Positions 1,638 to 20,000 of a stretch of DNA of 20,000 nt are shown here, one piece after another. Location of the stretch: positions 234,081 to 254,080 of the forward strand of contig JAPEUD010000028.1 in the NCBI GenBank assembly GCA_026026165.1, read 5' to 3'. The notes under the pieces are model-generated. The model made no database searches, was not told where the DNA came from, and worked only from the letters and a program-made list of their open reading frames with translations. Source of the DNA: Sarea resinae (Eukaryota). The position numbers and the translations under genes were made by a program. The number at the start of each line of letters is the position of its first letter. The first letter of the stretch is position 1.

Positions 1638-2630
1638 TCTAGCCCGGGAACGGATCCGAGTTGTTCGGTGGACAAGCTTTCGCGGAGCAAACCTTCTCGG
1701 ATGAGCCAGCACTTGCAGCCTTGCCAAAAGGATGGCGGACTATCCGGACCGATGGCGGCCGTTGGGGAACAGCGGATTTAGGATTCGGCGAAGCGTCATT
1801 TCCTAATTTATGTTTTGGAAAGCCAGTAAATGTATACTCGGCAATCCTCATGGCAAACGCTCTGAAGCTGACTTCAGAGAGGTCTTCCGAAGTCTATTGA
1901 CTTACATTCACTCACTAACCCAGAGCCTACTGCACATCTGCTGCACATCGACTTCACTAGCTATCGGACGCGGCACCAAGCATAGTTTGTGCACCATACA
2001 TTCGCTTATCAGCGCTGAGGACCTGCCCTGCATCTTCTTGCCTTCAGATCGCCAAGTTCAGATCATCTTCTCTTCTTTTCATCAGATCATCACCTCGCCA
2101 CCACTCCGTCTATCGTCATTCTCATCAACTTTCATCATTTCAGATGGATCTCGATCGCTACAGCAGTGAGATGTCACAATACATATGGCTTCACTTGCTG
2201 GTCATCAGTCATCTTTCGAATTTCAGCACATGAGCAGCGATAGCAACGAGGACCTGCCCGAAAGAGACGAAATGGCGGCGACAACACAAGCAAGAAATGT
2301 GATCACATATGGAGCTATCATCGAAGTCATGAAGACCGATCCCGAAGCAAAGCGAGCCGTTTTTGCAACAATCGGAAGAGATGCCAGAATCATTCGTACG
2401 CCTCGGAGCTGTCGCGGCTCGTACGACCCAAAGTGATGTATCAGTGGAAGGATATGTGAAGAATCAGGGAGCGGTCATTACGCGCAGCAAAGTCCAGTAC
2501 AGACCACTGCCGATCCCATCTCAGACGAAGAGTTTGCAGATAACGTGGATTGGGATGATCTCGTGCATATTCTTGAAAAAAGCGACCGAGCCGCTTCGCC
2601 CCCAAAGCAAATGCAGTCAGTTTTTCAACC

Positions 2631-3386
2631 TCATTCGTGTTTCCCTTTTCCGTATATCCTTTCAAACGTTTCATCGCTCATTTCATAATCGCTTACAAGT
2701 CCGTCCGTCCCCTTAGACAGTCCAGTGACTACCAATGCATCCGTGGGTTTCTCGCCACACCATTTGTCCTGATCAAAAGGACAGGCGCTCCAACCGACGA
2801 CACAATCCAGCAGAACCTCAAACTCAACCCAGTCACCCGGCCTCGAACAGTTCAACGGCTTGTTGGCGAAGTATGGCGTGTTCTGAAATATATTGAAAGG
2901 CTCCCGGACCTCGGTAAGTCCTTTCATGCCGAATTCGGAAAAGGCTTCGACCATATTTTGCGCACACGATCGATGGCCTTTCATCCCGCGGTCCTCATAC
3001 ATCTTTGGGAAACACGACATCATCGTCATGTCGTGAGTTTTGACCGTGTCGCCTACCAGACGGAGAAGCGGACGGTCCATGTTTGAGTAGATGCACTCGC
3101 CAATGGTAATCGGCGTACCTCTCGTGCGGTGCAATGTGTATGATGGAGAAAGGTGTTCTGCTGAAGCTATCGAGCCATAGGTGAACGGTAGAACAAATGC
3201 GCTCATGTCCACAACTTGGAGACCATGGAGATCAATGAGTCGGAAGATAGTGCCGGCTTTCAGAGCTTCCGCATAGCCATGAGCAGCAGGAATGATGGTT
3301 TCGGTTGATTTGGAACGGAAGTCGAAAATAGAACGTTGTACGTCATCTGTCGCAGAGTGCGACGCTGAAGTGAAAGTCTCCGTCAT
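2631..3386 (-). CDS. DUF1989 / urea carboxylase-associated family protein (carboxyguanidine deiminase CgdA/B-like), 251 aa, intronless
   Basis: Uninterrupted ORF with the family motifs in order: IPAAHG-A--LKAG--FRLID--G-QVVD, EHLS---T, YSN-DRPLL---GDTVKTHD----C, GHRSCAQN, PFNIFQNT, SRPGDWVEF, SACPFD, KPT. The first ATG is at 3386 (the ORF track uses an upstream GTG at 3419). A TATA box lies ~58 nt upstream. Confidence 0.88.
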   Translation of the reverse strand: MTETFTSASHSATDDVQRSIFDFRSKSTETIIPAAHGYAEALKAGTIFRLIDLHGLQVVDMSAFVLPFTYGSIASAEHLSPSYTLHRTRGTPITIGECIYSNMDRPLLRLVGDTVKTHDMTMMSCFPKMYEDRGMKGHRSCAQNMVEAFSEFGMKGLTEVREPFNIFQNTPYFANKPLNCSRPGDWVEFEVLLDCVVGWSACPFDQDKWCGEKPTDALVVTGLSKGTDGLVSDYEMSDETFERIYGKGKHE

Positions 3387-3443
3387 AGTAGCTGCGTCTT
3401 TTGCGAATGGGAGATACACTGCTGGACGAGGATGACTGACGGC

Positions 3444-3451
3444 TTTTTATA
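3444..3451 (-). promoter_or_regulatory. TATA box of DUF1989 gene
   Basis: TATAAAAA on the minus strand (+ strand tttttata) ~58 nt upstream of the ATG at 3386. Confidence 0.55.
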
Positions 3452-3603
3452 AACTTTCGACAAAAATCCACCCTGCCATTGGAATGCCCTGGACTCTTTA
3501 AGCTATTAACTACTGCCAAGTCCCTTATCTTTCCTGTATGGTCGGTCGTTCGAGTGAGTCTCGGACATTACTATGGTATCCCTTCGTCTGGTGAGTACAT
3601 AGT

Positions 3604-3633
3604 ACGGATACCAACGGATATCAACGGATACCA
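3604..3633. repeat. 3 x 10-bp tandem repeat ACGGATA(C/T)CA in DUF1989 upstream region
   Basis: acggatacca-acggatatca-acggatacca, plus an inverted partial copy tggtatcc at 3574-3581. Confidence 0.75.
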
Positions 3634-5378
3634 GCTGCGTGACGCTAGCCACTAACGCCGGAGCTCGCCGACAAGATATTCCGTAGCTTCTTCGCTCTCC
3701 TCGTAGTATTCAACTCTTCTCGTATTAACGTCTTATCACCCGCAATTTCGTTAGTCTAAGCTAATCTAGTTGCCGAGCAGCAGGGACCGATACATCTCCT
3801 AGCTGTACTTTATTCTAATGAATTCAGGCTAAGTAGAATTCTCACCAAATAATCTTGAAGTTTAATCCAATAATCAACGCGAAAGAGGATAATGTAGTAG
3901 AAGTGCTCAGGAGTATAGAATTTTCTAGTCGCAACCAAGTGCAGTGGTCTTATATTCCAACACGAAACATTTACTTGGGTGATTTAGTGATTCGGTCCGA
4001 AGTAAATCCCAATCATTAAAAAATAACCCGTAAATCGCACATTCTAATGGCATCACTAGTGTAATATCTATCAATCTACATGGATTTGGCTGGTGAAGCC
4101 ATTACAAAATCGGTCAGAGGTGTGATTCCATGTGACAAGCCACTTGACCATCCCGTGTGATGTTGTCCTGCGACGCGATTTCCAGCGATGTGAATGTAGC
4201 TCTTCCCACATGCGGTCAAGGCATCCTTCATGCTTTGAAGACAGTATCGGGTTGAGGACCGATCGAAGAATGTGGCTTACCAGCGATGGTTGCGGTACTA
4301 GTCCGAGGCCATCGCGATCTTGATGCTCTCGACTTGTGGAAGCCGCCGCCGACCTCGGACGGAACGCGCTTTTCCCCACTTCGGAGAGCATATGGCGCAA
4401 ATCTGTTAGGATGAAGTAGACAGCGATTTGCCCAGTGGCCCGACGGTTCAGCCTTTAGATAGGACCAAACCAGAAAGGCCGGAGTGCAAAATGCAGCAAG
4501 AGGAAGGACGGTCCGAAGGCGAACCTGCCGATCGGCGCAGCTCACATCGTTCTTGCTCTTTTCCGGAAGACTCTAAGCCTCAAGTGTGAACGGGAAGGAT
4601 CAACGGGTGGGCGGAACGCTGAGCTGAGGACAGAACCGAGAACGCAGCGATGGGTTCTTCCGACTGGCCTGCGCGACAGATAATGCGTCTAGCGGCGGTA
4701 AGGAAGTCTTGGGACCGGGTTGGCATGTCGTTCAAAGCGACGGCTTGGCTGCGTTTCGGATGCGGAGATTAGCACATCGCCTCCGTCGCGAAGCAAAGCT
4801 CATGGCCTAACTCTGGGCACGTACGGTCAAGGTTAGCTGTCGCTCACTTTCGCCTTGGCATGCGAAGAGCAAACCTCTCTTGACTCCTCGTCCCTAGTCG
4901 TAAACTGCAGATAATCGATCCGCTAGAGTATCACCATCCCCGCCAGCCATTGACCGATCAAGACTATTGTATTCCATCCACCGCAAGTCTGCGGGCTGAC
5001 ATGCTGATGCCGCCGAAGCCTGGTCGGAGTCAAGCGTTGTTCGATGGAACGCTGAGTGTCTGCTCGTAGTGCTGATCGAGTGGACTGCTGAATCTAAAAC
5101 GATGCAATTAGATTGGATGTTTTGCAGATGGGAGATCTCGACTCAACAGTAAACGTCAGACAAAAGCGCCATGGCGACACCATCCGACAGATGGATGTGG
5201 CCATCGGAGTTGGAGGCAGCCGTGGGTCTGTTGGCATCGTGGCCGGTCCATTGCCCAATGGCTAGAAAGGACGGAAACGCAGGCACTACTAAGAGGTAGG
5301 AGCGCGGAAAACAATAAGCAAGATCTGCGACGAGATTTGCTGTCGGCACCGTGGTTGGAGTTGTTAGACCGAAACGAC

Positions 5379-6642
5379 TCACCTTCTCCAGATCATTGTG
5401 CTCCGTTCCCTGCCGTGTGATGACTGTGAGAGCCCCGGGGCAACCAAGCAGTTTATCGTGGTGGATGACATCGACGGCGACGTCATTTGCGATTGCGAAA
5501 CCTCGTCAGTAGTTCGGCCGGAGAGCCGGCGGGCCATTCTCCGAGACCTGGCACGATGAGCGCTGCTCTGTGGCCTGGTCTGTGGCATGGCCTGTAGCAT
5601 GATGAGGTTCAGCCCAGAGACTTTGAAGAGCAATACGTAAAGATTGCACTTACCTCACCCATGGTAATGGACCGACCGGTGACAAACACATGTATGAGAT
5701 ATGATGCTGGAGGCACAAATGGCTGGACATTGACGCTGGAACCTTCCGCATTACGAGCCGGCAATGACTACGGGTTGGAAAGACCCTTGACTTCAGGACC
5801 GGAATGGCAGAAGCTGGAGGGCTAAAGATGGGTTTGGATGGCGGCATCAGTATCGTCCAAGTCCACGGCGTCTGGCCGTGCAGCGGCTTTGTTGAAGCCT
5901 TGGAATAAACGTGCGGAGACAGCGACGGCGATGTCGGTTGCCGATGCAACAGGAATCCGGTCTGCGACTCGGTCAGGTATCACTTCCTGATTGGCAGAAT
6001 CAAATTAGTGAGCTTCGTATGCCACCGAGAGAGCCGTAGGTAGAGAGGAACTTGCTTTGGCGACGCTGGTGGGTGGACCGGTCAGAGGAAAGAGTGTGGC
6101 ACTGAATAGAAGATAGTGTTGAGTACTGTCCGGATCATCAGGTGGGTTTACCGGCCAGTTCCTGCTGATGGGATTCGGATCGGAGCAGCGGGCTGGGCTG
6201 GACTCAAGGAAAGTTGGAAGGATGCGTGATCCAGCTCCGATGCGATTGTCTGCCTCACGAGGTCGTGCAGGCCAGCACTGATCGAGACAGGCTGCTTATC
6301 GTGTGTCTGTTCCTGGTTCGCGGGCGATTGTAGCGGATGCTCCGAGGCATGATGAAAACCAATAGGCATCGTGAGAGTAATGGGCGGAGGGTGCAGAGAC
6401 TCTATCGGAAGCGGTCAGTATACCGGCATTTGTAGAAGATAGGAAACACTGACAGATAGGTCGTCTGGGATCGATGGATGATCCGAGTAGAGGCAGGCGT
6501 TGCGGCAACGGCGATGGCGACGGACAACCGATCCAGCAATGGATTGAGAAGAATGCAGCGAGTGCTGGCGACAAAGCCGGACATTTTGAGCGGAGGAGAC
6601 AAAGCGATAATCTGACATACCTTTCCTGTCAGCTTGTAACAT
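5379..6642 (-). pseudogene. Multi-intron gene or pseudogene of unknown function
   Basis: Series of fungal-sized introns on the minus strand: 6565-6620 (GTATGT..CAG), 6402-6453 (GTCAGT..TACTGAC..TAG), 6102-6151 (GTAAAC..CAG), 5987-6055 (GCAAGT..CACTAAT..CAG) and 5592-5653 (GTAAGT..CAG), plus a donor GTGAGT at 5382. Splicing joins one frame (MPIGFHHASEHPLQ...GTGR-ATLFPLTGPPTSVAK-EVIPDRVADRIPVASATDIAVAVSARLFQGFNKAAARPDAVDLDDTDAAIQTHL*), with TAG stops before and after it. No recognisable domain. Confidence 0.4.
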
Positions 6643-7137
6643 GGTGCGCTAGACTGGGGGCATGAGCATCACAATCGAAGAGCAGACGTTGCTTCCATGG
6701 ACCGAAGTGTAAAGCATCAATGACGACCAAGCGTGCTCTTCTTTCAGTTGTCGAATGAAGAAGAGCGATTCGAGCTAGTATAGAGGAGCGAAACGTTTCT
6801 GTGCCATGGTAAACGATGATAGAAAGATGAGCAGATATGAGCGTTGACACTGCGAAGATGGGAGAAAACAAGCCTTGATGGAGGCGTCAGGAATCCCTCG
6901 ACAAATTGCATATGGTACTAGGTAGATATCCGAATTGATGTGCGGCATGTGGACTGAGGTTGGCGGAAGGGAGAGGGTCGAAGCTGCGATCGAAGCCGCG
7001 ATCTCACACAAGGGAGCAAAACCAAAACCGGAAAGAACGAACGAACGATCGAAAGACGTACAACGCACATGAGGCAACGTCCTACGCGGATGCACCAAGC
7101 CTCAAGTACTTGCTCAGATACAGCGTATGCCGATCAA

Positions 7138-7778
7138 TAATATACACAGGATGTAGGTTAGGATTAGAAGTTTTCACAGTCGGTCAGGATTTTCTAACCA
7201 CGATAACTCTACAACTACACATTGTATAGAGATGATTTTGCGACAAGTTCTATTCTAATTTAATGACTCTAAAGATCTATTACATTGTTATATAATTATT
7301 TGTTATACGCAATGAGATACACTAGTGTAAGTGTAAAGAAGCTAATTCTATAAGTTTCTTAGGGTAGAAGGTAGCTATATATAATTTCTTACTTATACTT
7401 CTTATTTTATTTCTCTCTAGTTGCTTATATTTTTATTATCTCTCTCTAATATATATAGGATATAGGTTAGGATTAGAAGTTTTTATAGTTAGGATTTTCT
7501 AACTATACTAACTCTATAACTACATATTATATAGAGATAATTTTATAGTAAGTTCTATTTTAATTTAATAACTCTAAAGATCTATTATATTATTATATAA
7601 TTATTTGTTATATATAATAAGATACACTAGTATAAGTGTAAAGAAGCTAATTCTATAAGTTTCTTAGAGTAGAAAGTAGCTATATATAGTTTCTTACTTA
7701 TATTTCTTGTTTTATCTCTCTCTAATTACTTATATTTCTTATTTTATTTCTCTCTAGTTGCTTATATTCTTATTATCT
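7138..7778 (+). repeat. Tandem duplication of a ~309-bp unit at the GC/AT boundary
   Basis: Copy 1 at 7138-7446 (taatatacacaggatgtaggttaggattagaag...) and copy 2 at 7447-~7778 (taatatatataggatataggttaggattagaag...). Differences are almost all C>T/G>A. The 3' ends carry ~32-bp subrepeats (acttatatttcttattttatttctctctagtt). Confidence 0.9.
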
Positions 7779-7990
7779 ACTCTTAAATCTTAAGTCTAAT
7801 CTAAACTAATTCTTTTTAACTAGAATCTATATTCTTATAGTATCTAATATACTATACCTTCTAAATATAGACGCTCTAAGAAATATAATTAAAGAGAAGC
7901 TATAGGCTGCTTAGTAAGTGTCTTACCTAAGGTTATACTATAAAGAAAAATCTGTTTAAAAAGAAGTGCTACTAAAGAAGGCTTTAAATT

Positions 7991-8244
7991 CCTAACTATA
8001 TTGCACTAGCTAAAGACATTGTCTTTCTACTAATCTTTACCTCTTTAAGGCATTAAACTAAGCCTAAGTAAGAATTAACAGTGTTTTCTTAACAGTGTTT
8101 TTACACCTATTAAAAAACGCTCTCTACCTACTAACCTAACTACTTTAATAGCTGCTTTAATCCTTACCTATACACTTACTCTTTGTTTATTTAATTACTA
8201 GCTTACTAGCATTAATTTCCTACTCTTAGAGTTGCTCTATCTCT
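7991..8244 (+). repeat. Heavily RIP-mutated copy of the TLH upstream module at 17921-18195
   Basis: cctaactatattgcactagctaaagacattgtc...gaattaacagtgttttcttaacagtg aligns with cctaaccgcattgcactagctgaagacactgtc...gaatcgacagtgttttctcgacggtg. Confidence 0.88.
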
Positions 8245-8840
8245 AACTACATTACAGCTAGCAATTCTACTAGGATTAAAGAGATATACTAGGTATATAC
8301 TCTAACTACCTAGCCTTTAATTAGCTTGCCCTACTAGTAGAAAGTAGGATTAAGTAGAGTAGGATTAAGCAATTGCTATTATATTAAAATCGCCTCTTAA
8401 CACTGCTAGCTGTATCTCTAACCCTTAAAGAGCTGTCTTTCTATAGCACTTAATTAATTATCTCTTACTATTAATACTGTTTAGGCTTGCTTAACTCTCT
8501 AGAGTTATACTTAACCTTAGTTAGAGCTACTTTCTACTTATACCTCTAACTATATCGCTGCTAAGCGACTAAGTAAGTAAGCAGGCACGCCTTAAGTAAC
8601 CTCTAGTAGTAGCTCTAGGTAACTCTTAGTAGCTATAGCTACTTTTTTTAAAATAGCAACTAAATAACTAACTAACTAGTTAAGCACGCCTTAGGTAACT
8701 CTTTATAACACTTTAAAAGAAGTAAGCCTTAGTAGTATCCTAACTATATAGCTAGTCACTATCCTATCTAATACAGCTGTTTAACAATTAAACTTCTAGA
8801 TAGTCTAGTAGAAAAACCTCTCTCTAGGCTGTAAGCGCTT
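8242..8840 (+). repeat. ~600-bp direct repeat, copy 1 (copy 2 at ~10491-11096; diverged partial copy at ~8965-9190)
   Basis: Colinear throughout, e.g. ctactaggattaaagagat(a/g)tactaggtatatac ... gctacttttttttaaaatagcaactaa ... aaacttctagatagtctag, differing mainly by transitions. Confidence 0.9.
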
Positions 8841-9258
8841 TGCCTGCTCTACTTGCTAGCTGTTTAGCTAGCTAGGCTAGCAAAATAATAAATAATCCTA
8901 AGTAAGTGTCTAGTTTTTATTTGTTAACTGCCTAGCAGCGCGCGCGCGTCGCTTATTAGCTAGCCTAGCTAGTAGAAAGTGTAATTAAAGTAGTGTATAG
9001 GATTAAGCTAATATAAAACTAGTAAGACATTGTATCTAACACTGCTAGCCTAATCTCTAACTTGTAGGTAGTAGCCTTTCTATATATATAACTAGATTTA
9101 ATTATCTTCTACTACTATTAGAGCTGTTCTAGTATGCTTAACCTCTTAGAGTTATAAGGCTTTAGTTAGAGCTACTTTTAACTTATACCTTTTACTAAAT
9201 CTCTTTAGTTAGTTATAGTAAGAGCGCGCGCGCCCTCTAACTATCTATTACTATTACT

Positions 9259-10490
9259 ATAGCAGTTGTAGTAGCTGCTACTACTATAACTATTATAATA
9301 AACTAACTAGTCTATAAACTAGATTATTAGGTGCTACTATACTAGCAATATAGTTATGCGATTTAGAACCTTAACTAGTATCTTAAGTATTATTATAGTA
9401 TATTAGTAAAGCAGCAGCAGCTAATTGTAGCTAGCCTATATAATTATATCCTTACTTAACTATAAGATATCTAATTACTACTAGTTAATAGCTAGTTGTT
9501 TCTAGTATTAGAAACGCTACTAGACACCTTTTAATACAATAATTTTAACTAATATCACTATATTAGTGTTAGTTAACTAGTAATACAAAAGCATTACAAT
9601 AAGCAGCACTACTAGCAAGCTAGCTAGCTGAAAAAAGCAACACATTAGCACTTAGTAAGAGTGTAGACCTTCTTTAATAGCTGTAGACTACAGCAATATT
9701 TCTCTATACAGCTGCTACTAGCAGATTAAAGAGAGTATACTTTCTCTTTCTCTTTCTCTTTCTTTTCTTCTTCTTCTTCTTTTAACTCTAAGCTAGGCTG
9801 CTTAACTAGGTTGCCTATATAGTTAAGTTATAAAAATACTAATATAGTAAGCTAGATCTAGTGTGAATTTAATGCTTAGCAAGCTATATATAAGTAAAGT
9901 TAGGCTCTAATTAAGAGTAAAGTGTAGAAGACTAATTAGACTAGCTAGTTTAGTTGTATAGGCTAGCTAGCCTACCTAGGCTATTAGAATATAGCGCACT
10001 TTCTCTATACTAGTAAGCTTTTAAACTAGCGACTTAGGTAGTAGTAGTAGCAGCAGCGCTTAGAGTAAGATTTTAATTATATCTTAAGCTAAGTAGCTAA
10101 AGTTACTTAACTAATAATTAAGCGCTATATAGCTAGGCTAGCTACTCTACTACTTAAGCTCTACTACTAGCTGTGTAGTAAGAAGCGCACTAAAGTACAC
10201 TAGCAGCTATAAGCTTAGCTGTATAGCAATAAGGCCTAGGCATACTATACTAACTATTAAGCGTGTCTAATCTGCTATTACTTATATATCTTTACCTACT
10301 ACACTTTTACTACAACTAATAATAATAACAATGCATTTAATATATAGCTAAAAGATGCTAATAAATTGCTGTATCTAATAGCAAAGTAGAATAAGCGCTT
10401 ATAGGCTATCTAAGAGTTACTTAAGCTAGATAGTAATAAGTCCTAGTAGGTTAACTATATACTAGCCTTCTTATAAGCGCTAATCTTTTA
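9259..10490 (+). pseudogene. Truncated, heavily RIP-mutated telomere-linked helicase (DUF3505 N-terminus) copy
   Basis: Relic frame LVYKLDY*VLLY*QYSYAI*NLN*YLK ... QKHYNKQHY* ... V*TFFNSCRLQQYF matches the DUF3505 region of the 18517 gene. Nucleotides 9845-10490 align with 19175-19800 (e.g. gtgtagaagactaattagactagctagttt vs gtgcagaagactgatcgcactagctagttc). Homology stops abruptly at ~10490. Confidence 0.82.
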
Positions 10491-11096
10491 CCTATCTGCA
10501 TTGCAGCTACTAATCCTACTAGGATTAAAGAGATGTACTAGGTATATACCTCTACTACCTAGCCTTTAATTAGCCTACCTTGCTAGTAGAAAGTAGGATT
10601 AAGCAGAGTAAGATTAAGCAATTGCTAGCGCGTCGAAATCGCCCTCTAACGCTGCTAGCTGTATCTCTAACCCTTAAGCAGCTGCCTTTCTATAGCACTT
10701 AATTAATTATCTCCTCTTATTAATACTGTTTAGGCCTGCGCAACTCTCTAGGGTTATACTTAACCTTAGTTAGGGCTACCTTCTACTTGTACCCCTAACT
10801 GTATCGCTACTAAGCGACTAAGCGAGTAAGCAAGCAGGCGTGCCCTAGGTAACCCCTAGTAGTAGCCCTAGGTAACTCTCTTAGTAGCTATAGCTACTTT
10901 TTTTAAAATAGCAACTAAGCAACTAACTAACTAGTTAAGCGCGCCCTAGGTAACCTCTTATAGCACCTTAAGAGAAGCAAGCCTTAGTAGTATCCTAATT
11001 GTATAGCTAGTCGCTATCCTATCTAATGCAGCTGTTTAACAATTAAACTTCTAGATAGTCTAGCAGAAAAACTTCTCTCTAGGCTGCAAGTGCTTT
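10491..11096 (+). repeat. ~600-bp direct repeat, copy 2
   Basis: Aligns with 8242-8840, is slightly less mutated, and begins exactly at the TLH truncation point. Confidence 0.9.
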
Positions 11097-11154
11097 CTAA
11101 GTATAGCCCTGCTGCTAAATCGCAACTGACTAACTAACTAACTAATTAAGCGCG

Positions 11155-11235
11155 CCCTAGGTAACCCCTTATAGCATCCCTAGGTAACCCCTTATATTAT
11201 CTCTAGGTAACTCTTTGTAGCATCCTTAGGTAACT
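11155..11235 (+). repeat. 23-bp tandem repeat CCCTAGGTAACCCCTTATAGCAT x3.5
   Basis: Units at 11155, 11178, 11201 and 11224 (partial). Dispersed copies of the same CCCTAGGTAACC core occur at ~10843, 10866, 10944 and in 8589-8700. Confidence 0.85.
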
Positions 11236-11489
11236 ACAACTATATGTTTAAGGTTAGACGTTTTTTTCAGGTTAGACAACTACACCTATATCTTAAGATA
11301 TTAAGCGATAATATACTAAATTAAGATCTTCCTAATCTTTCTATCTAATTAGAATTCTAAAATTCTTTCTAGATAGTTGTATATAGAGGATTAAAAACAA
11401 GAGGTTTTATAGATTCTAACGTTTTGTTAGGGTAACTAGGATTATTAAGCGAATTTAAGCGAATCTTAGGTACTTTGTACCTAGGAGAT

Positions 11490-12062
11490 ATCCTTAAACA
11501 TTTTTTTAGGATACGCCTAGATCTTTAAACATTCTTTTAAGATACGCCTAGATCTTTAAACATTCTTTTAAGATACACCTAGATCCTTAAACATTCTTTC
11601 TAGATACGCCTAGATCCTTAAAGATTCTTTTAGGATACGCTAGATCCTTAAAGATTTTTTCGCGATCTTTTACACTTGCAAAATATCCTTAAACATTCTT
11701 TTAAGATACACCTAGATCTTTAAACATTCTTTCTAGATACGCTAGATCCTTAAAGATTTTTTCGCGATCTTTTACGCTTGCAAAATATCCTTAAACATTC
11801 TTTAAGGATACACTTAGATCCTTAAACATTCTTTTAGGATACGCCTAGATCCTTAAAGATTTTTTCGCAATCTTTTACGCTTGCAAAATATCCTTAAACA
11901 TTCTTTTAAGATACACCTAGATCCTTAAACATTCTTTCTAGATACACTAGATCCTTAAACATTCTTTTAAGATACTCTAGATCCTTAAACATTCTTTTAG
12001 GATACGCTAGATCCTTAAAGATTCTTTTAAGATATTCTATATCCTAAAACGTTCTTTAAGAA
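11490..12062. repeat. Minisatellite array of 30/31-bp palindromic units with interspersed 41-bp variants (A5-B-A2-B-A2-B-A5+partial)
   Basis: A = ATCCTTAAACATTCTTTTA(A/G)GATAC(G/A)CCTAG. B = ATCCTTAAAGATTTTTTCGCGATCTTTTACGCTTGCAAAAT at 11644, 11746 and 11849. There are 17 full units plus a partial one. Confidence 0.93.
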
Positions 12063-12254
12063 TATTTTGTCTGTACTATTTTACTTAGGGAAATATTTGT
12101 TTGCGCTGTTTAACAATGTCTTAGTCTATTTGTCTTAGACTAGTTATCTAGCTTTAATGTACTAGAACACACATCACTAAACACAAAGCATTCTAGTGCA
12201 GTTATATATCTTACTCTAGAGATTATAACAGCTGTGCTTGCACTATATCTAAGA

Positions 12255-13085
12255 CGTCTTAAACTTAACAGTAGCATTCTCTCTCTTCTAGCGCAGGTCG
12301 CTAATCTTTTCTCTAAGTTTTGCCTACTTCTATAAGCCTAGGATTATCTAGAACCTAGCATAGAGAATAAGACTTTTTAGGTCCTCTAAAGCATCCTCCT
12401 ATAATTAGCTCCTCTTTATTAGTCGCATAACACATTGCTTCTTCTTAGGACTTATAAAATAGCGTTTGTAATGCATAATAATTGTTGCAGGCTATGACAT
12501 GCTAATATGTTTAAATAGTTAGGTAGAGAGAAAGCGCAGGCTAATGTTCTTAGAGTAGAGGTGATATTCCTAGTTTTGTTAAACTAGCCTTTTACTAAAG
12601 ATCTATTAGAGCTTTTTATTTGTCTTAAGAAAGGCAAACATGTCTGCGTTCTTAGGCGCGAGTTTAACTTTAGTAGGTATGTCCTTAAGGTATTAGTTAC
12701 AGATGTTTGCAATAATATAGTTTAGCAACTATACTAGAGTGATGCTATTTAATAATAAGTAAAAATAAGGAAGACAATTATATCTGTAAGATCTTACTGC
12801 TTGCTTAGGACTTGCTCTACTATATAACTAGTTTTACTAGTATAAGGCCTGAGTTTAGTACTTGTCTTGTTATAGATCACGTTAGAATGCTGCTTAATAG
12901 ATAAAGAATTAGAAACATTGCTTACTTATCCTATATAACCCTAAAAGACATAAGCTTTAGCTTAATAATAACCTGCTTCTATTGCTAAACATTAGAATTA
13001 CTATACTAATATTAGGATTACTATCTTAGAGAGGATACTGTATAGATATATATCTTGCTAAGAACTTTTCTAAAAGACATACTGT
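12255..13085 (-). pseudogene. RIP-destroyed coding relic, product unidentified
   Basis: A minus-strand frame reads protein-like apart from TAA/TAG: LLNYIIANICN*YLKDIPTKVKLAPKNADMFAFLKTNKKL**IFSKRLV*...EDALEDLKSLILYARF*IILGL*K*AKLREKISDLR*KRENATVKFKTS*. A candidate ATG lies near 13080 and TATAAAAG near 13220. Boundaries approximate. Confidence 0.4.
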
Positions 13086-13559
13086 CTTAGTAAAGGTGAT
13101 AGATAAGGTAGATAAGGTAGATAAGAATTTTTAATAGTGTTTGTTAGTTAATAGGTAGTAGCGCAGCAATATATGTTTATATTCTTAGTTTGTCTAGAAC
13201 GCGTCTAGCTTGCTGTCCTTTTATATGTGTAGGTCGCACCTTAGTAAGAAGTGTGATCTTACACGCGCTTGCATTTACCTTAGTCACTAAGTCTATATAC
13301 TAGAATATCTCTTACATGAAATCTAAGCGACTAGGTCGCTAAGTTTATATACAGAGTAGTCTCTTAAGCGAATTCTAAGCGAAAGAACGTTGATTCACCT
13401 ATACTACTAGATTTTAAGATACTAGGAATCTAGAAACCTTTTGCTTTTAATTAAACGCACTAGGTTGCCTTATAAGCACTTACTTCTATCTATTACACTT
13501 ATAAGTAAGTAGAATATAACTGCACTTTTACTAGTTGTTATTGCATTACTTCTTATACT

Positions 13560-15600
13560 AGAGTCTATTCTAAAACAATTGCTATAGATCTTACACTAGC
13601 CTTTGTTAACTTATTAACTATTTCTTATTAGCCCTCTTTTCTTACCTACTATAACAGAGTCTAACCTCTACTATCCTTATAGTCTAAGTCTCTACCTTTT
13701 GCTAACTAGATATCTATAATAAATTGCAATCCTTTACACACTGCTAGGTGTAGTAGGGTTAGTCTAAACCTATTAGCTTGCCTCTAGTTTGCACCTCTAT
13801 CTAACAACTTCTTAACAGACTCTTAATCGCCTGCAAGTGCTATGTATATTAGAGGCGTCCTCCTTATACTATCCTCTTTTCCTACATTGCTATACTCCTC
13901 TTGCTATAAGATTAGGTGTATAGTTAACACATACCCTTATCTAGCTGCTAGTAGAACAGAGAAAGCCTCTCTTAGGTCTTTCTTATCTACTTAAAGTGTA
14001 TGCTGACTAGGTAATAGCTATTGTTTCTCACGCTGTCGCGCTTTTCTATTAGCGTCTATTAATTGCTAAACAATATCTAGATAGCCTTGCTTAGCTGTAT
14101 AGAAAAGCAGTGGCTATAGTCTCCTAACTCTAATTAGAGCTATATTAATGTCTTAATATCCTAGGAGCTGCGCTACTATATAAACATAACCTTTCTTAGC
14201 TGTATATAATAGAGCAGTTTAGTTCTAGTAGCCTGCTATTATATTAATCTTAATACCCTGTGTCTTTCTTTCTAATAGCTATTTCACTACCTCCTTATAA
14301 CTGTTTAGTGCGGCATGCATTAGGGGAGTAATTCTATCCTTATTAGCTTAATTTATATCTCTTTCTACTTGCGCTAACAGAACTACTATATCCTAGTGAC
14401 TGTTTTCCGCCGCTTAGGTAAGAGAGGTGTTGCTATAAAGATCTACTATATCTAGAACACTATTATCCTACTACAACATATAACTAATAATATCTCTATG
14501 CCCTTTTCGCGCTACTAGAGAAAGTAGGACCTCTTATAAGAATCTGTAACGTTCCTTAAGAATTAATACTCGATGTCTATTAATTAGAAGGTCTAGTATT
14601 ATAATATAGCCTTCCTATACTGCCTAATAAACTAGTGTCTAGCCTTAGACGTTAATAGAGTCAAGCTTAACTATGTCCTAACTAAGGATTTCCTCTACTA
14701 CATGTCTTAGGCCTTGCTTTACTACCTATAATAAGACTTGCATCCTATTCCTAGCTTGTACTCTAAGGTCTAGATGCAGCTGTAGATGTAAGAGTAGTAT
14801 TGCAATCTCCTTATTCCTTTAAGCAGCGGCTGTGTTTAGAGCGCTGCTAAAATATCCGCCTAGTGTCACTAGATTAGCTTGAAATTATAGGAGAGTGTAG
14901 ACTATCGCCTTTGATCCTCGCGCAGCCGCGGCCTAAAGGGCAGATCTATAGAATCTGCACTAGATATTAGTGTCTGCTCCTTTCTCTAGCAGCATTCAAA
15001 CCTTAGCGTCTTTATTCTCTACTGCATATATATAGAGAGAGGTGCTAAAACACATGTTAATAGTATTAATCTCTTTATGCTAGAGGTAGTTGTTTGTAAG
15101 GCCTCTTACATATGTAAGAGAGCTAAGTCGCTAGTACAGCGTATAATCCTAAACCTAACTGTCTAGCAGTCTAAGGATCTCCTCCTGCTGTAGAAAGCTA
15201 AGAGCTAGTGTGTATACTAATATCACTACTTTGCTCTTGTCTTTACTAACTGCTTCCTAATATCCTCTTCTTATAGCAAGCATCCTCTAGATCCTCTAGA
15301 CTAGTTTGTGTATTATTAGCCCTAAGCTGCTTGTTTAAGCATTAGTCGCTAGAATCTAATCTGCAACAAAATGTTGAATTGCCTTATTAGATATTGTCTT
15401 AACAACTAATGCAAAAGAAACAAAGAGCTCTGCCTTTTAAGCTACACACAGCTTTAAAACCTAATAGAACTGCTCTAACACTAACTTTAAGTCAAGCACC
15501 TCCTTTAGATTAGCCACGTTCTACTTGTAGAGAATTAATAACTAAAGGATCTATTGTAGCAATTCGACTAGAAACAAATTAAGACTTATTATGCTATTTA
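13560..15600 (-). pseudogene. RIP-destroyed ankyrin-repeat protein gene (~14 repeats in ~13590-15050); N-terminal part probably extends towards ~16700
   Basis: Minus-strand translation: MLLEKGADTNI*CRFYRSAL*AAAARGSKAIVYTLL, GGYFSSALNTAAA*RNKEIAILLL, NTSLT*AAENSH*DIVVLL, ITPLMHAALNSYKEVVK*LL, TALLYTAKKGYVYIVAQLL, RTPLIYIALAGD*ESVKKLLDRGAN, LTLLHLAVCKG. The stops are TAG/TAA/TGA consistent with C>T/G>A changes. Confidence 0.85.
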
Positions 15601-17600
15601 GAAAGGGTTCTTAACGCAGAACTTAGAGAGCGAATCTTGCTTAGAAAAGCAGAGAGTGAGCTGCCTGTTAGGTATGTATATAGGATAAAATTTATAATAC
15701 TAAAGACTAATCTTTGATTCTATTGTGTACTTAGTTAGTATCTTAGAAAGCAGGGTTTTCTAAACAAAAGACACTTAGAGCAGAGCCTTATAACTATAAG
15801 ATATATACTTGCTTAGTATATAGATACTGTCTATTAATTAAGCAGATGTAAAACAATTATATAATAACCTGTTTCTAGAGAATAAGAATCCTAAAACATC
15901 CTTAACTAGCAGATAAGAAGCATAATCTGTTGCCTTAATCTATATTAAGTCTCTCTTTCTAGTGCTTTCCTTTGCCCTTCTCTTATACTATAGCCTTGCA
16001 CTAGTTTTATTAGGTCTTTCGCTGTTATTAATATACCTAGCTAGAATTAGCATTAGCAAAGATAGATTGCACACCTACAACTAAATAACTAACCTTTATA
16101 ATCTTCTTATCTTTTACCTTCTATAGTATAGCAATATCCTTAGCATATCTGTCTTCCTTTTAGATTAGATTAAGAGTGACTGCTTGTTCCTTATTATAGA
16201 GTTCTACATTGTGAGTTATAGTTATAAACTTGTATAGCAATTAAGACTATACCTTACTCTCTTAACTTAGTCTCTTTAACAAACTTGTTTGTAATCTCCT
16301 CTTAGCGTCTAGCTCTTCTTTGTTAGTTTGTAGTTACTAGAGTATTCTATTAGAAGTAGTTGTAACAAGCATTTTTAATAGTACTACTAACATCCTAGGC
16401 TCTTAGGAGTCTTTAAAGAGAGTTAACACTCTTTAGCTTCTTGCTTCTCTCTTAGGTAGAGACTTTATTAATTATCCTATAGATGTAGATCACAGCCTTA
16501 GGCTTATAGCAATATATCTGTAGGAATTCTATTATCGCCTAGGGACGTTCACTAAGTAAGAGTGATATTTCTTAACGCTTTTACTTAATATACCTTTTGT
16601 AGAGCTTAATCCTTATAGCTATCTGCTATGTTTTAAGGAAGTCGTGTAGTACAGTTGTTAGCAAGTTAAAGGTTGTTAATAGTGAGATAAATCAAGTGAC
16701 TAGCAACTACAGCTAGTTGTTATCTAGAGGAATAAGACGCGTTAAGCAAAGATAGACTAGTCTTAGTAACTAGTTGATCTGTACTTAATTGCTAGTACTA
16801 AGCTATAAGCTGTCTAGAGTGAAATAATCTTTCTAGATTTAGAATATCTACAAACCCTGCCTATAATAAACTCGCCTAATAAGAAGAATAAGCTACCCCT
16901 CTTATAGCACCTTCTATCGCTCTCTCTTTCTCTCTCTCTCTTACTCTTTGCATTAAACATTAGAGGTATAGGTGCTAATAATAAGCTTATATAATAGCAA
17001 TACTTTTTCTCTCTCTTATATACCTTATGTCTGTTGTCTAAGAGATCTAATCAGTTAATTGTGTCTGTTATCTTATTGTCTTTAACCTCTTTAACCTCTG
17101 TAAGTACATTTGTGCTCTAAGGATTCACTAATCCTAACAGCGTTGTTTCCTACTAAGTGTCTTATTACTTCTACAGCTGCTTCCTAGTAGCAGTATAGTG
17201 TACCTCCTCTATCTAATACTCTAACTCTAGTTTAGCAGTATCACTATTTGTAAGTATACTCTTAAGGTAAGTGTTAATCTGTTTATAGACTTAGTAAAGT
17301 TCTAGCATCTGTTTAATAATATCCTTTGATATCTATTGCAAGACACAATCTAGTATGCTTTGTAGACTATTGCTACTGCAGTTAGTATTAGATCTCTTTA
17401 TTCTAGGTAGCTGATTTTGTGAGTGGCTAGGCTGACTCAGTTTGTGCATGCAAAGGATGTGCGCAAGGTTTGTACAAATCTACGAACTCACAAATAGAGT
17501 ACGAACAATGATTTGTGATAGGATAGCATTGGCAACTACTCTGCTAGCTACTCTATAGGGATAGGACACATATAGTGCTCTAAAGGCCGAACAGCCAGAC

Positions 17601-17720
17601 AAAAGGGGGCTGTTTGTGCCGAACTCCTAAATAGTCGAACGAAAGAGGGCTGTTTGTGCCGAACTCCTAAATAGTCGAACGAAAGAGGGCTGTTCGTGCC
17701 GAACTCCTAAACCGACGAAC
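17601..17720 (+). repeat. 3 x 40-bp tandem repeat
   Basis: (G/A)AAAG(A/G)GGGCTGTT(T/C)GTGCCGAACTCCTAAATAGTCGAAC at 17601, 17641 and 17681 (third unit diverges at its 3' end). CGAAC/GTTCG motifs continue into the flanks. Confidence 0.92.
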
Positions 17721-17920
17721 CTCTGAGGTTCGTGGGCCCGAACGCTGCTTAGTATGCTTGGCAGAGAGTTGCCTACTTCCTAACAGATTTCCTTACATGT
17801 GTAAAGACTATTTGTGTAAGAGTAGGGCTAGGACGCTAGGCCTAAAATGCTCCTCTAGATCTGCAAAACCTTTCCTAATCTAGGCACTATTCTTTAGGCA
17901 GTTTATGCATTTCACCTAAG

Positions 17921-18445
17921 CCTAACCGCATTGCACTAGCTGAAGACACTGTCTTCTCGCCGATTTTCGCCGATCTTCGCCTCTTTAAGGCATCGAACTG
18001 AGCCTAAGCGAGAATAAGCGAGAATCGACAGTGTTTTCTCGACGGTGTTTTCGCGCCTGTCGAAAAACGCCCTCTGCCTACTGACCTGACCACCTTGATA
18101 GCTGCCTCAATCCTTGCCCGCGCGCCTGCCCTTTGTTCGTTTGATCGCCAGCCTGCTAGCGTCGATTTCCCACCCTTAGGGTTGCCTTGTCCCTTAGGGT
18201 TACTTAGGGTTCGAGGTATTAAGAGGTGATTGCAGCTAGCCAAGGCAGACCAACAGCGCACTTCGCCTCTAGCGCCTGCGCAGCGCTTAAAGGAAAGGAG
18301 AAGGCTTGCTTGCGTCTGATCTACTAGCCGCCGTTTAAAGATTTTAAAAAACTTCTAGACAGTCTAGAAGAAAAAGCTCTCTCTATATATATACACTGCG
18401 CCTGCCTAGCCTGCTAGCTATTTAGCCAGCCTAGCTAGCGAAATC
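17921..18445 (+). repeat. TLH upstream region, lightly mutated copy (homologous to 7991-8244 and 8776-8885) with CTTAGGGTT motifs
   Basis: Two blocks of homology to the left-hand copy. TTAGGG occurs at 18176, 18194 and 18204 (and 18469). Confidence 0.8.
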
Positions 18446-18516
18446 CACTAGGAGAGTTTAAGCGTCACTTAGGGTTAAAGAAGGAGGGTCGAGAGGTTAT
18501 TACAGTGAGCCAAGGC

Positions 18517-20000
18517 ATGCTAACTACGCACTTCGCCTGCAGCGGCGCCGCCGCCGCCCTTGATAACTAGCAGCAGCAGCTGCAGCAGGCGGCGCAAGAA
18601 CAAGAGCAACAAGAGCAGCAAGAGAAGCAAGAGGAGCAAGAGGAGCAGCAAGAGAGATTAGGATCAAGATTAAGATCAGGATCGCGATCGTTATTATTCC
18701 ACTATAAGCCAAACTATCAGGTCCTAATCTGCTGTCAATATAGCTACGCCCTTCGAAATATAGACCGCTACTTAAAGGACAGTCATGCAATGCTAGCTAA
18801 GGAGCGACGTCTGCTTAGAGCGCAGTATTAAGGCTGCAGCCTACTTGATCCGCATGCTGTGCCTTTGCCACCGCTGAATTGCCCTGCATTTCCCGCTCTA
18901 GGGGCACCCACTGACAGCTTTACCTGTTGAGACTGTAGTTTTAGCACAGCAAATCGCCAGATCATGCAGAAGCATAGCAATAAGCAGCACGCCTAGTCTG
19001 CCAATCGAGAGGAGGAAGAAGAAGAGGACTTGCCGAATTAGCAGCTAGTTCTAGTGCAGACCTTCTTTACTAGCAGGCTGCAGCGATATTTTCTGGTGCG
19101 GCTGGCAGAAAAGGAGCACGTAGAGAGGAGCTACAATAATAATCGGCTAGGCGAAGCAGCCTCTAACGACCTAGCTAGTTAGATCTAGCGCGAGTTCGAT
19201 GCTTAGCAGGCTGCGCACAAGCAGAGTCAGGCCTTAACTAAGAGCGAGGTGCAGAAGACTGATCGCACTAGCTAGTTCAGTCGCACTAGCTGGCTGGCCC
19301 ACCTGCGCTGCCAGAATATAGCTCACCTTCTCTACGCTAGCGAGCTCTCTAACCAGCGACTTAGGCGGCTGCGGCGGCAGCGGCAGCAGCAGGATTTAGA
19401 CCAGATCCTTAGCCAGGCCGCCAAGGTCACCTGACTGATAATCGAGCGCTGCGTGGCTAGGCTAGCTACCTTACCGCTCGAGCTCTGCCGCTGGCTGCGC
19501 AGCAAGAAGCGCACTAAGGTGCACCTAAAGCCATTAGGTCAGCTGCAGACCGCGGAGGCTCAGGTGCGCTATGCTAACTATTAGGCGCGTCTAATCTGCT
19601 ATTGCCTGCGCGTCTTCGCCTACCGCACCTTCGCCGCCCACGCACCTGACGCGCGGCTGAAGGATGCCAACGAATTGCTGCATCTGACCGCGGAGCAGAA
19701 CAAGCGCTTGCAGGCTATCTAGGAGTCGCTCGAGCTTGATAGCGACGAGGCCCTGCAGGTCGACCAAGTGCTAGCCTTCTTGCAGGCGCTTATCTTTGAC
19801 CCACTACTAGTAGACCCCTTTGACAGCGCGCTAGTCTACTTCCTCGCTGTGCTTAGCATCGACCCCCTTACTGAGCGGCTGCACACAGCGACAAGCTACT
19901 CCTACTAGCTGGCCAGGGTGGTCTACTGCATGCAGGTGATTAGGGTCGAGGTGCTGCTGCTAGCGGCCGCGCAGGAGCGGCAGGGCCAGGCTGAGCAGAA
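18517..20000 (+). pseudogene. Telomere-linked RecQ-type helicase (TLH) family gene, N-terminal DUF3505 and following region; RIP-inactivated; runs off the window
   Basis: One frame from ATG 18517 to the window end without frameshift. After a poly-Q/E tract it reads LFHYKPNYQVLICCQYSYALRNIDRYLKDSH...FTC*DCSFST...MQKHSNKQHA*...N*QLVLVQTFFTSRLQRYFLV (DUF3505 pattern), then KTDRTS*FSRTSWLAHL, ELCRWLRS, RYANY*ARLICYCLRV and DPFDSALVYFLAVLSIDPLTERLHTATSYSY*LARVVYC, motifs I recognise from fungal TLH proteins. Several stops fall at expected Trp/Gln positions. The helicase core is not in the window. Confidence 0.85.

Follow-up and report, generated by a model that had tools for sequence, protein, structure and literature searches.

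The described systems closest to this locus are the telomere-linked helicase (TLH) families of filamentous fungi. At the chromosome ends of Fusarium oxysporum, tlh-containing regions are described that are either full or truncated; tandem repeats accompany them, and single telomere repeats occur interstitially (PMC12857005). Genes that combine DUF3505, DEAD and Helicase_C domains are reported from Fusarium subtelomeres (10.1101/2023.02.05.527183). Similarly, a report on Zymoseptoria tritici counts 7 full and 6 truncated subtelomeric RecQ copies of low GC, and describes the Y' elements of Saccharomyces as subtelomeric helicase-encoding repeats that recombination has multiplied among the chromosome ends (PMC4522978). 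Helicases also occur in mobile elements, as in Academ with its RecQ helicase (PMC3627910). Cargo-carrying units have been described as well: a Starship carries a DUF3435 tyrosine-recombinase captain at its 5' end with cargo behind, and in Pyrenophora tritici-repentis a tandem unit led by a DUF3505 fragment carries ToxB, for which the authors invoke a Helitron-like element (10.1101/2025.11.13.688278).

The window, meaning the whole 20,000-nucleotide stretch that was analysed, lies on a contig of 254 kb. A neighbouring DUF1989 gene is 79% identical to its Capronia epimyces counterpart, in keeping with a Chaetothyriales-like ascomycete as the host. Two same-strand 5' parts of TLH genes are present in the window, and their features are as follows (R/Y, purine/pyrimidine-encoded).

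7991..8244, plus strand: module A of copy 1, the non-coding start of the common homology, beginning CCTAAC
8242..8841, plus strand: module B1, upstream non-coding, with 88% nucleotide and 98% R/Y identity to 10491-11096
9310..10495, plus strand: TLH-family ORF relic, copy 1, with OrsD and the post-OrsD region, bearing a heavy RIP load and broken off at about family codon 450
10491..11096, plus strand: module B2, second copy of module B, directly adjoining the truncated copy-1 ORF
17921..18194, plus strand: module A of copy 2, found by self-BLAST, R/Y self-BLAST and transition-tolerant alignment
18176..18212, plus strand: three CTTAGGGTT motifs upstream of the copy-2 ORF, each a single telomere-type hexamer, with a fourth at 18469
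18517..20000, plus strand: TLH-family ORF, copy 2, lightly RIPed and running off the window at about family residue 450, with the ATG at 18517 as its putative start
18694-18990, plus strand: OrsD domain of copy 2

In the transition-tolerant alignment, the homology between the copies begins abruptly at CCTAAC (7991 and 17921), some 600 bp ahead of the ORF, and extends to about 10495/19805, while the DNA upstream of 7991 is unrelated to that upstream of 17921. Self-BLAST and R/Y self-BLAST gave co-linear matches, along which the offset between the copies falls from 9930 to 9309 bp.

7991-8244 in copy 1 with 17921-18194 in copy 2: 71% nucleotide and 93% R/Y identity
8790-8886 in copy 1 with 18349-18444 in copy 2
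9312-9419 in copy 1 with 18702-18809 in copy 2
9660-9714 in copy 1 with 19053-19104 in copy 2
9840-10496 in copy 1 with 19167-19805 in copy 2: 67% nucleotide and 93% R/Y identity

The copies thus have in common a 254-bp non-coding leader, parts of the repeated upstream module and the first ~450 codons. At the protein level, the two frames match over 396 aa in a single frame (BLASTP E=1e-73, 42% identity). These matches agree with the preliminary description of the DNA, which had placed two co-oriented TLH copies ~9.3-9.9 kb apart with homology from 7991 and 17921.

The same description had named the DUF3505/TLH family, and this identity holds. Copy 2 matches OrsD (PF12013, formerly DUF3505) in Pfam with E=1.2e-10 and 42.2 bits against a cutoff of 26.6, whereas a Pfam search of copy 1 gave no match. 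The post-OrsD region is homologous to full-length proteins of the OrsD...DEAD+Helicase_C type, with 577 phmmer matches at E<=1e-3 and alignments that extend as far as query residue 517; among the long matches, OrsD was found in 14 of 15, DEAD in 13 of 15 and Helicase_C in 11 of 15, and JGI gives relatives the name 'superfamily II DNA helicase RecQ'. The sequence comparisons therefore support the assignment of both copies to the OrsD/DUF3505-led helicase (TLH-type) family.

RIP was recognized by an excess of C>T and G>A changes between copies together with raised TA/AT and lowered (CA+TG)/(AC+GT), and all of these were found here. From 7001 to 17500, TA/AT is 1.2-3.7 and GC is 0.22-0.41, in agreement with the RIP that had been proposed for the AT-rich block. 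In module A, copy 1 shows C>T or G>A at 62 of the 64 positions where the copies differ, and in the ORF part at 164 of 202. A further duplication marks the left edge of this block:

7138..7756: 305-bp tandem duplication, 2.0 copies (TRF)

Here, C or G in the first copy stands against T or A in the second at 32 of 37 differences. Copy 1 is an old relic that differs from copy 2 almost entirely by C>T or G>A changes. The GC-rich copy 2 is the younger one and was likewise killed by RIP: its frame contains 13 in-frame stops in 517 codons (10 TAG, 1 TAA and 2 TGA), which coincide with W and Q columns of intact relatives.

The common orientation and the 9.3-9.9 kb spacing could be taken to reflect a local tandem duplication of a ~9.9-kb block, made of the TLH 5' part and the spacer, that was later RIPed; RIP is known to target linked duplications in Neurospora, and the spacer would then recur past base 20000. 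However, copy 2 stays in frame and in family register for about 65 codons beyond the break of copy 1 (19805-20000), so the present truncated structure is not what was duplicated. In addition, the upstream flanks of the copies differ, and the very unequal RIP load (GC ~0.32 in copy 1 and ~0.55 in copy 2) argues for different histories. We regard such a local event as highly improbable.

The preliminary description did not refer to the truncation of copy 1 or to the module that follows it. Because its ORF is truncated at about codon 450, the helicase domain is certainly absent from copy 1, and immediately behind the cut its upstream module recurs (10491-11096, matching 8242-8841). A weaker internal repeat relates 8320-8559 to 8955-9204. 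The truncation and the abutting upstream module suggest that tandem TLH units recombined unequally or ectopically.

The 6.6 kb between the copies is a mosaic of minisatellites, an opposite-strand ankyrin pseudogene and unidentifiable RIPed DNA, with the following parts.

11155..11234: 23-bp repeat, 3.5 copies
11490..12061: minisatellite, ~17.7 copies of a 31-bp unit with a higher-order unit of 102 bp, weakly self-complementary
12062..13687: RIPed DNA without a detectable gene
13688..15100, minus strand: ankyrin-repeat pseudogene, with an Ank_2 match (E=1.8e-32) in the frame that starts at 17902
15101..17500: RIPed DNA without a detectable gene
17602..17711: 40-bp repeat, 2.8 copies, GC-normal (GC 0.47), upstream of copy 2 and absent from copy 1

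The 31/102-bp and 40-bp arrays are thus real, as had been noted. The 31-bp array had been called palindromic; some self-complementarity does exist, but it is weak, with arms 70-71% complementary and hairpin z values of -1.5 and -2.1. The ankyrin gene was correctly recognized but lies on the minus strand as a pseudogene, with 31 stops in 471 codons (19 TAG, 11 TAA and 1 TGA). An 'unknown gene' had been placed in 12062..13687, for which no evidence of any kind was obtained: there was no Pfam match in any of six read-through frames. In 15101..17500 there was again no Pfam match, and no homolog was found for the 340 residues upstream of the ankyrin repeats; the N-terminal part of the ankyrin gene may lie in this stretch.

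These elements bear on the proposal that the TLH gene leads and mobilizes a large amplifying element comparable to a Starship or Crypton. In this view, the YR-like (tyrosine-recombinase-like) domain of the TLH gene would move or copy a unit whose cargo, between tandem arrays, is the ankyrin gene with the DNA next to it. The sharp 5' start of homology ahead of the ORF between unrelated flanks would suit such an element, as would a spacer RIPed throughout and the ToxB unit mentioned above. However, a boundary common to only two copies is trivial, as any pairwise duplication gives one, and RIP can leak into single-copy DNA (PMC3105345), so that a RIPed spacer does not require a multicopy spacer. 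Uniformly strong RIP over the 6.6-kb spacer exceeds classic short-range leakage and would fit a once-repeated spacer. Within the window, the duplication covers only the TLH 5' part, and nothing there demonstrates a repeated spacer or one linked to TLH elsewhere. Since copy 1 breaks off near codon 450 and passes into the promoter-region module B, the spacer follows no intact leader or defined 3' end; no terminal inverted or direct repeats bounding the proposed unit were seen within the window, and the ankyrin gene is dead and on the opposite strand. The claim that the ankyrin/array segment is cargo of a TLH-led unit was therefore not upheld, and the flanked ankyrin gene with the decayed TLH copies is ordinary repeat debris.

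The enzymatic part of this proposal concerns family sequence beyond base 20000 and thus outside the window. Between OrsD and the helicase, the TLH family seems to carry a YR-like domain, to judge from residue conservation and predicted structures. Among 27 full-length relatives, Arg-I is found in 27, Lys in 26, Arg-II in 27, the His following Arg-II in 25, the His/Arg position in 26 (H in 22, R in 4) and Tyr in 26; the motifs run in the order R (TGGQPxRGxEI), K (YHK), R-H (W/Y-R-H-x-A), H/R and, 8-9 residues on, Y. Three positions ahead of Arg-II, where the canonical HxxR motif has its first His, the family alignment shows no conserved His, and the residue register with true YRs leans on an insignificant hhalign alignment. 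In AF2 models (pLDDT 70.5 and 85.5), the predicted topology of a helix, a three-strand sheet and helices appears to agree with the YR fold, and the conserved Tyr follows a low-confidence acidic linker. In Foldseek, where the domain model reached TMq 0.3-0.4, the best 24 matches listed against the PDB were all YRs (best E=0.034); XerH occupied ranks 1-3 for an 816-aa model (best E 0.07); and of the best 30 rows listed against BFVD, 23 carry a description, 20 of them as integrases or YRs (best E=2.1e-3).

The preliminary description had suggested a tyrosine-recombinase-like motif pattern between this region and the helicase. The conserved R-K-R-H-Y set and the leading place of YRs in Foldseek speak for it, but the three Foldseek searches of AlphaFold models gave no match at E<=0.001 and four sequence-based tests were blank: Phage_integrase of Pfam matched 0 of 14 family members, the family profile found no YR among PDB sequences, hhalign against XerC, XerD, lambda Int and Cre gave Prob 0.21 and E 0.29, and PHROGs gave a YR match in 0 of 15 members. 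The nearest named ESM-Atlas clusters, a lead only, were NDC10_II and Phage_integrase, both at 0.86. The TLH papers found by literature search contain no mention of a YR-like middle domain. Such a domain could explain how TLH genes spread and leaves room for a self-mobilizing origin of TLH units. For this locus, the near-invariant residues, the lead of YRs in all three Foldseek searches and the Phage_integrase and NDC10_II clusters favour the mobilizing role, whereas the domain has no statistically significant structure or sequence match and the captain family of Starships, DUF3435, is unmatched. Taken together with the state of the spacer, an element moving cargo here is unlikely.

On the other hand, the fold of the middle domain may derive from a recombinase but have been reduced to a host role in DNA binding or telomere maintenance, the copies being spread only passively by subtelomeric recombination. 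The yeast kinetochore protein Ndc10 has a recombinase-like fold, and the NDC10_II cluster lead and the unconserved first His of HxxR would be consistent with this; telomere maintenance roles are also discussed for TLH in parts of the literature (PMC12857005, PMC4522978). However, Arg-I, Lys, Arg-II and Tyr are near-invariant among proteins ~25-70% identical, which resembles active-site selection, and a purely structural domain is not expected to retain the nucleophile tyrosine. A host function of this kind is conceivable, although we hold it to be doubtful.

Based on the results presented above, the locus is probably a RIP-degraded TLH-containing region of the kind known at fungal chromosome ends. 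Directly observed are the map of homology, the spectrum of RIP changes, the assignment to the family and the decay of all three genes to pseudogenes. Recombination or break-induced copying between TLH-bearing regions, to which subtelomeric families are usually ascribed, would have produced the copies, rather than transposition of a cargo-carrying unit. The spacer may have been RIPed because it was itself repeated, or by RIP spreading from the flanking repeats. No telomere array or terminal (TTAGGG)n occurs within the window, where the sole tandem telomere-type repeat is (CCCTAA)2 at 201-212, so the subtelomeric position is presumptive. The YR-like domain and the ToxB unit, as far as the latter is described, are compatible with element-like behaviour, which the degraded subtelomeric region does not require. 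The preliminary interpretation as a whole is thus partly supported.

Compared with known systems, Helitron Rep/Hel and Academ provide a precedent for a DNA-breaking enzyme and a helicase in one selfish element, but their nucleases are HUH or DDE rather than YR-like, and this locus showed the hallmarks of neither Helitron nor Academ. The Starship captain is a DUF3435 tyrosine recombinase that leads cargo. The proposed logic, in which a gene bearing a recombinase stands near a sharp 5' boundary and further genes follow it, resembles that of Starships, and ankyrin-type genes in a RIPed accessory region are common to both; however, the unit here is ~10 kb at most, its leader is truncated, and neither element ends nor target-site features were found in the window. 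DUF3435 and Phage_integrase had no match in the copy-2 product or in 15 long relatives at E<=1e-3, and when 14 members were searched at E<=5, both were absent from the best 25 of 35 Pfam families. The TLH middle domain seems to resemble tyrosine recombinases (Xer, Cre, lambda Int, Flp) and Cryptons in conserved-residue order and spacing, in predicted topology and in its top structural matches. It differs from them in having no significant sequence or profile similarity, in Foldseek E values that are all at least 2.1e-3, in the unconserved HxxR His, and in its fusion to a zinc-finger-like OrsD and a RecQ-like helicase, a fusion that we do not know among Cryptons. The Saccharomyces Y' elements, by their description, resemble TLH as helicase-encoding repeats, and to our knowledge no OrsD or YR-like domain has been reported in them. 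The TLH families/TLHcr of Magnaporthe, Fusarium oxysporum, Zymoseptoria and Ustilago differ from this locus in that telomere linkage is presumptive here, both window copies are pseudogenes and the truncated copy 1 runs straight into a second copy of its upstream module. They have the same architecture, with an OrsD/DUF3505 N-terminus, a long middle and DEAD plus Helicase_C, and, as described, the same company of full and truncated copies, associated tandem repeats and RIP decay.

Self-BLAST and a self-BLAST on purine/pyrimidine (R/Y)-encoded sequence, in which transitions are ignored, gave five co-linear same-strand matches between 7991-10496 (copy 1) and 17921-19805 (copy 2), the two 5' parts of a telomere-linked helicase (TLH) family gene. 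The copies share 67-71% nucleotide identity and 85-93% identity in R/Y space. A looser R/Y-encoded BLAST, which yielded short, uncalibrated matches in their thousands, was set aside in favour of the stricter R/Y run and a transition-tolerant alignment. In this alignment, the shared homology begins abruptly at CCTAAC (7991/17921), upstream of which the DNA is unalignable, and ends at approximately 10495/19805. When bases 18448-19998 of copy 2 were translated with X at stops (P0001), Pfam OrsD (PF12013, formerly DUF3505) was found at residues 83-181 (E=1.2e-10). Pfam gave no match on copy 1 alone in three frames; the copy-1 frame aligns with copy 2 over 396 residues at 42% identity without a frameshift (BLASTP E=1e-73). 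Because the nucleotide matches, the sharp alignment start, the OrsD domain and the copy-to-copy BLASTP all bear on it, the presence of two copies at the coordinates of the preliminary description is correct far beyond chance. The CCTAAC boundary was also considered as a relic of a single telomere repeat and rejected, as a 6-mer is too short and its orientation is wrong for a right-hand chromosome end.

A phmmer search with P0001 against 1.84 billion representatives returned 577 matches at E<=1e-3. Among 15 long relatives scanned, an N-terminal OrsD is present in 14, and DEAD and Helicase_C domains, at approximately residues 700-1330, are present in 13 and 11, respectively; approximately 750-900 unannotated residues lie in between, and several relatives are named 'superfamily II DNA helicase RecQ' by JGI. 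The assignment to the TLH family thus holds, given OrsD in copy 2 and relatives with OrsD, DEAD and Helicase_C. The same DUF3505, DEAD and Helicase_C architecture is reported for genes of Fusarium subtelomeres in the portion of 10.1101/2023.02.05.527183 consulted.

In the unannotated middle region, alignments of full-length relatives (A1, A2) contain a conserved block in the order TGGQPxRGxEI ... YHK ... RFLP ... W/Y-R-H-x-A ... LQxxH/R-x7-8-Y. Across 27 relatives (approximately 25-70% identical), the candidate residues Arg-I and Arg-II are found in 27/27, Lys in 26/27, the His after Arg-II in 25/27, and the late His/Arg and the Tyr each in 26/27. An AlphaFold2 model of the block (15-sequence alignment; pLDDT 70.5, pTM 0.70) consists of a helix, a three-strand sheet and further helices, with the Tyr behind a low-confidence acidic linker. 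With this model, the first 24 rows listed by Foldseek against the PDB were all tyrosine recombinases (YRs), including XerH, S. aureus integrase, Brujita Int, Cre, XerA, Flp, lambda Int and integron integrase (best E 0.034, TMq approximately 0.3). A second model, of a natural 816-residue relative that ends right after the block, reached a pLDDT of 85.5; XerH occupied ranks 1-3, and YRs accounted for 6 of the first 10 rows (E 0.07-0.5). Of the first 30 rows against BFVD, 23 carried a description, and 20 of these were integrases or Tyr-recombinase proteins (best E 2.1e-3). In the ESM-Atlas, the closest clusters with a name were NDC10_II and Phage_integrase, each scoring 0.86 and rated as leads only. 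Foldseek also matched part of the model of the 816-residue relative (P0004) to the ORC-interaction domain of Sir1 (1zhi_B, prob 0.96, TMt 0.47, E 0.2).

On the other hand, none of the Foldseek searches (PDB, 816-residue model, BFVD) gave a match at E<=0.001. Pfam at E<=5 on 14 family members gave no integrase family among the families listed, the block profile found no recombinase among all PDB sequences, hhalign against XerD, XerC, lambda Int and Cre was not significant (Prob 0.21, E 0.29), and PHROGs gave no match. The recombinase-like motif named in the preliminary description finds family-level support in the conserved residue set and in the YRs leading the Foldseek lists, and no counterpart in Pfam, the PDB profile search, hhalign or PHROGs. 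The TLH middle domain probably folds like a YR and keeps a set of residues resembling an active site. In copy 2 it is expected approximately 0.4-1.1 kb past 20000, its start being a few hundred bases outside the window, and is therefore not visible here. A full-text literature search found no paper linking TLH to YRs; since subscription journals and InterPro/Gene3D-type domain databases were outside its scope, the link may already be annotated somewhere.

The copies themselves are decayed. Of the differences between them, 62/64 in the leader (7991-8244/17921-18194) and 164/202 in the ORF part are C>T or G>A in copy 1, and these RIP changes occur at both CpG and CpA sites. RIP in Neurospora has a strong CpA preference, from which copy 1 differs: 15/30 and 37/90 of its C>T changes precede G, so that CpG was struck at least as often as CpA. 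Copy 2 is dead as well: its 517 codons include 13 in-frame stops (10 TAG, 1 TAA, 2 TGA). These fall at Trp positions of intact relatives and, in one case, at a Gln of a fragment approximately 88-90% identical, and are classic RIP nonsense changes. Copy 1 breaks off at approximately family codon 450, where the module that lies upstream of it directly recurs (8242-8841 repeated at 10491-11096; 88% nucleotide, 98% R/Y identity), while copy 2 stays in frame and in family register for approximately 65 codons past this break point. A further partial module repeat relates 8320-8559 to 8955-9204, and copy 2 carries a 63-nt pair at 18222 and 18492, 270 bp apart; the stretch before the ORF is therefore a variable repeat in its own right. 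Four CTTAGGGTT motifs, single telomere hexamers in the G-strand orientation, cluster upstream of the copy-2 ORF (18176-18212 and 18469-18477), and the corresponding stretch of copy 1 is RIP-degraded. Within the TLH promoter, they may serve as binding sites for a factor that recognises telomere repeats.

The other features of the window are as follows.

Features flanking and separating the two TLH copies
2631-3446, minus strand: DUF1989 gene, intact (E=6.9e-32), the sole clean gene of the window
11155-11234: 23-bp repeat
11490-12061: 31-bp/102-bp minisatellite
approximately 13688-15100, minus strand: ankyrin-repeat gene (Ank_2 E=1.8e-32)
17602-17711: 40-bp x2.8 array near copy 2, in GC-normal DNA

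GC content is normal (0.44-0.57) over bases 1-7100. The best named relative of the DUF1989 gene is from Capronia epimyces (79% identity), and from this match the host was read as a Chaetothyriales-like, black-yeast-like ascomycete. The 8 ORFs scanned in this GC-normal left flank gave no family besides DUF1989. Between 5000 and 7000, GC skew is strongly positive (0.13-0.29), and the minus strand is crowded with overlapping ORFs rich in Pro and Ser; those scanned gave no Pfam match, and no gene was identified. Whole-window tRNA and Rfam scans found none. At 201-212, within an open frame (1-273) in GC-normal DNA and approximately 7.8 kb left of the TLH block, a telomere-type hexamer in the C-strand orientation occurs twice in perfect tandem, (CCCTAA)2; chance alone would not be expected to produce such a 12-mer in 20 kb.

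Bases 7100-17500 are AT-rich (GC 0.22-0.41) and carry a RIP signature (TA/AT 1.2-3.7; (CA+TG)/(AC+GT) mostly 0.25-0.9), while bases 17500-20000 have a GC of 0.47-0.59, yet TA/AT is still approximately 2. Heavy RIP gives way to light RIP at approximately 17500, about 420 bp before the shared homology start at 17921. This point may therefore mark the beginning of the younger segment with which copy 2 arrived, in which case the 40-bp array would belong to it. In the spacer between the copies (11240-17900), the ankyrin gene is wrecked (31 stops in 471 codons), and the 31-bp/102-bp minisatellite is weakly self-complementary (arms 70-71% complementary, hairpin z -1.5 to -2.1). Pfam over six read-through frames of 11101-17903 found no family besides ankyrin repeats, and the 340 residues upstream of these repeats had no homolog at E<=0.01 among 8000 scored candidates; consequently, a second, unknown gene proposed for the spacer was not confirmed as a gene.

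It had also been proposed that the spacer genes are cargo of a TLH-led amplifying unit. The evenly heavy RIP over the 6.6-kb spacer is more than short-range leakage predicts, but RIP can run on into neighbouring single-copy DNA (Discussion of PMC3105345) and so fails as proof of a past multicopy state. Moreover, duplication within the window is limited to the TLH 5' part, the common start of the two copies is expected from any duplication, and, as copy 1 is a truncated relic fused to a promoter-region repeat, no intact leader precedes the spacer. A cargo-carrying unit thus does not follow from the window. A single tandem duplication of the present structure could be considered as the source of both copies; however, their RIP loads differ strongly, as do their upstream flanks, which argues for separate arrivals. 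The most economical account is that ectopic recombination among TLH units would have built a mosaic, RIP-decayed TLH-containing region. Comparable 'tlh-containing regions' with full and truncated copies and tandem repeats are described at F. oxysporum chromosome ends (PMC12857005, in part), and RIPed, low-GC, full and truncated subtelomeric RecQ copies in Zymoseptoria (PMC4522978, in part). In the sections of 10.1101/2025.11.13.688278 consulted, the ToxB unit of Pyrenophora tritici-repentis is tandemly amplified (5.8-11.4 kb), a small ORF resembling DUF3505 stands at its start, and the mechanism preferred by the authors is Helitron-like; this unit may be another example of a repeat led by DUF3505.

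The locus itself is one more example of RIP-decayed TLH-containing DNA, useful mainly as annotation (three pseudogenes and several minisatellites), and the recombinase-like domain, a by-product, matters more. It is conceivable, albeit unlikely, that TLH genes, rather than being ordinary host helicases, encode the enzyme of a class of selfish element that has so far gone unrecognised in fungi, with the window copies as RIP-killed insertions. Three parts would be united in this element: a zinc-finger-like OrsD, a YR-like domain in which the R-K-R-H-Y residues are conserved, and a RecQ-like helicase. Cleavage and joining of DNA would fall to the recombinase part, the helicase would power the copying of the element into chromosome ends, and neighbouring DNA (the ankyrin segment here, effector genes elsewhere) could sometimes be carried along. 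Helicase genes at fungal chromosome ends have been known for more than two decades, and we know of no mechanism by which they arrive at such a large number of ends and increase in copy there. If true, a conserved recombinase-like site between OrsD and the helicase would offer a concrete mechanism, open to testing, for the spread of TLH, and would tie TLH units conceptually to Cryptons and Starships.
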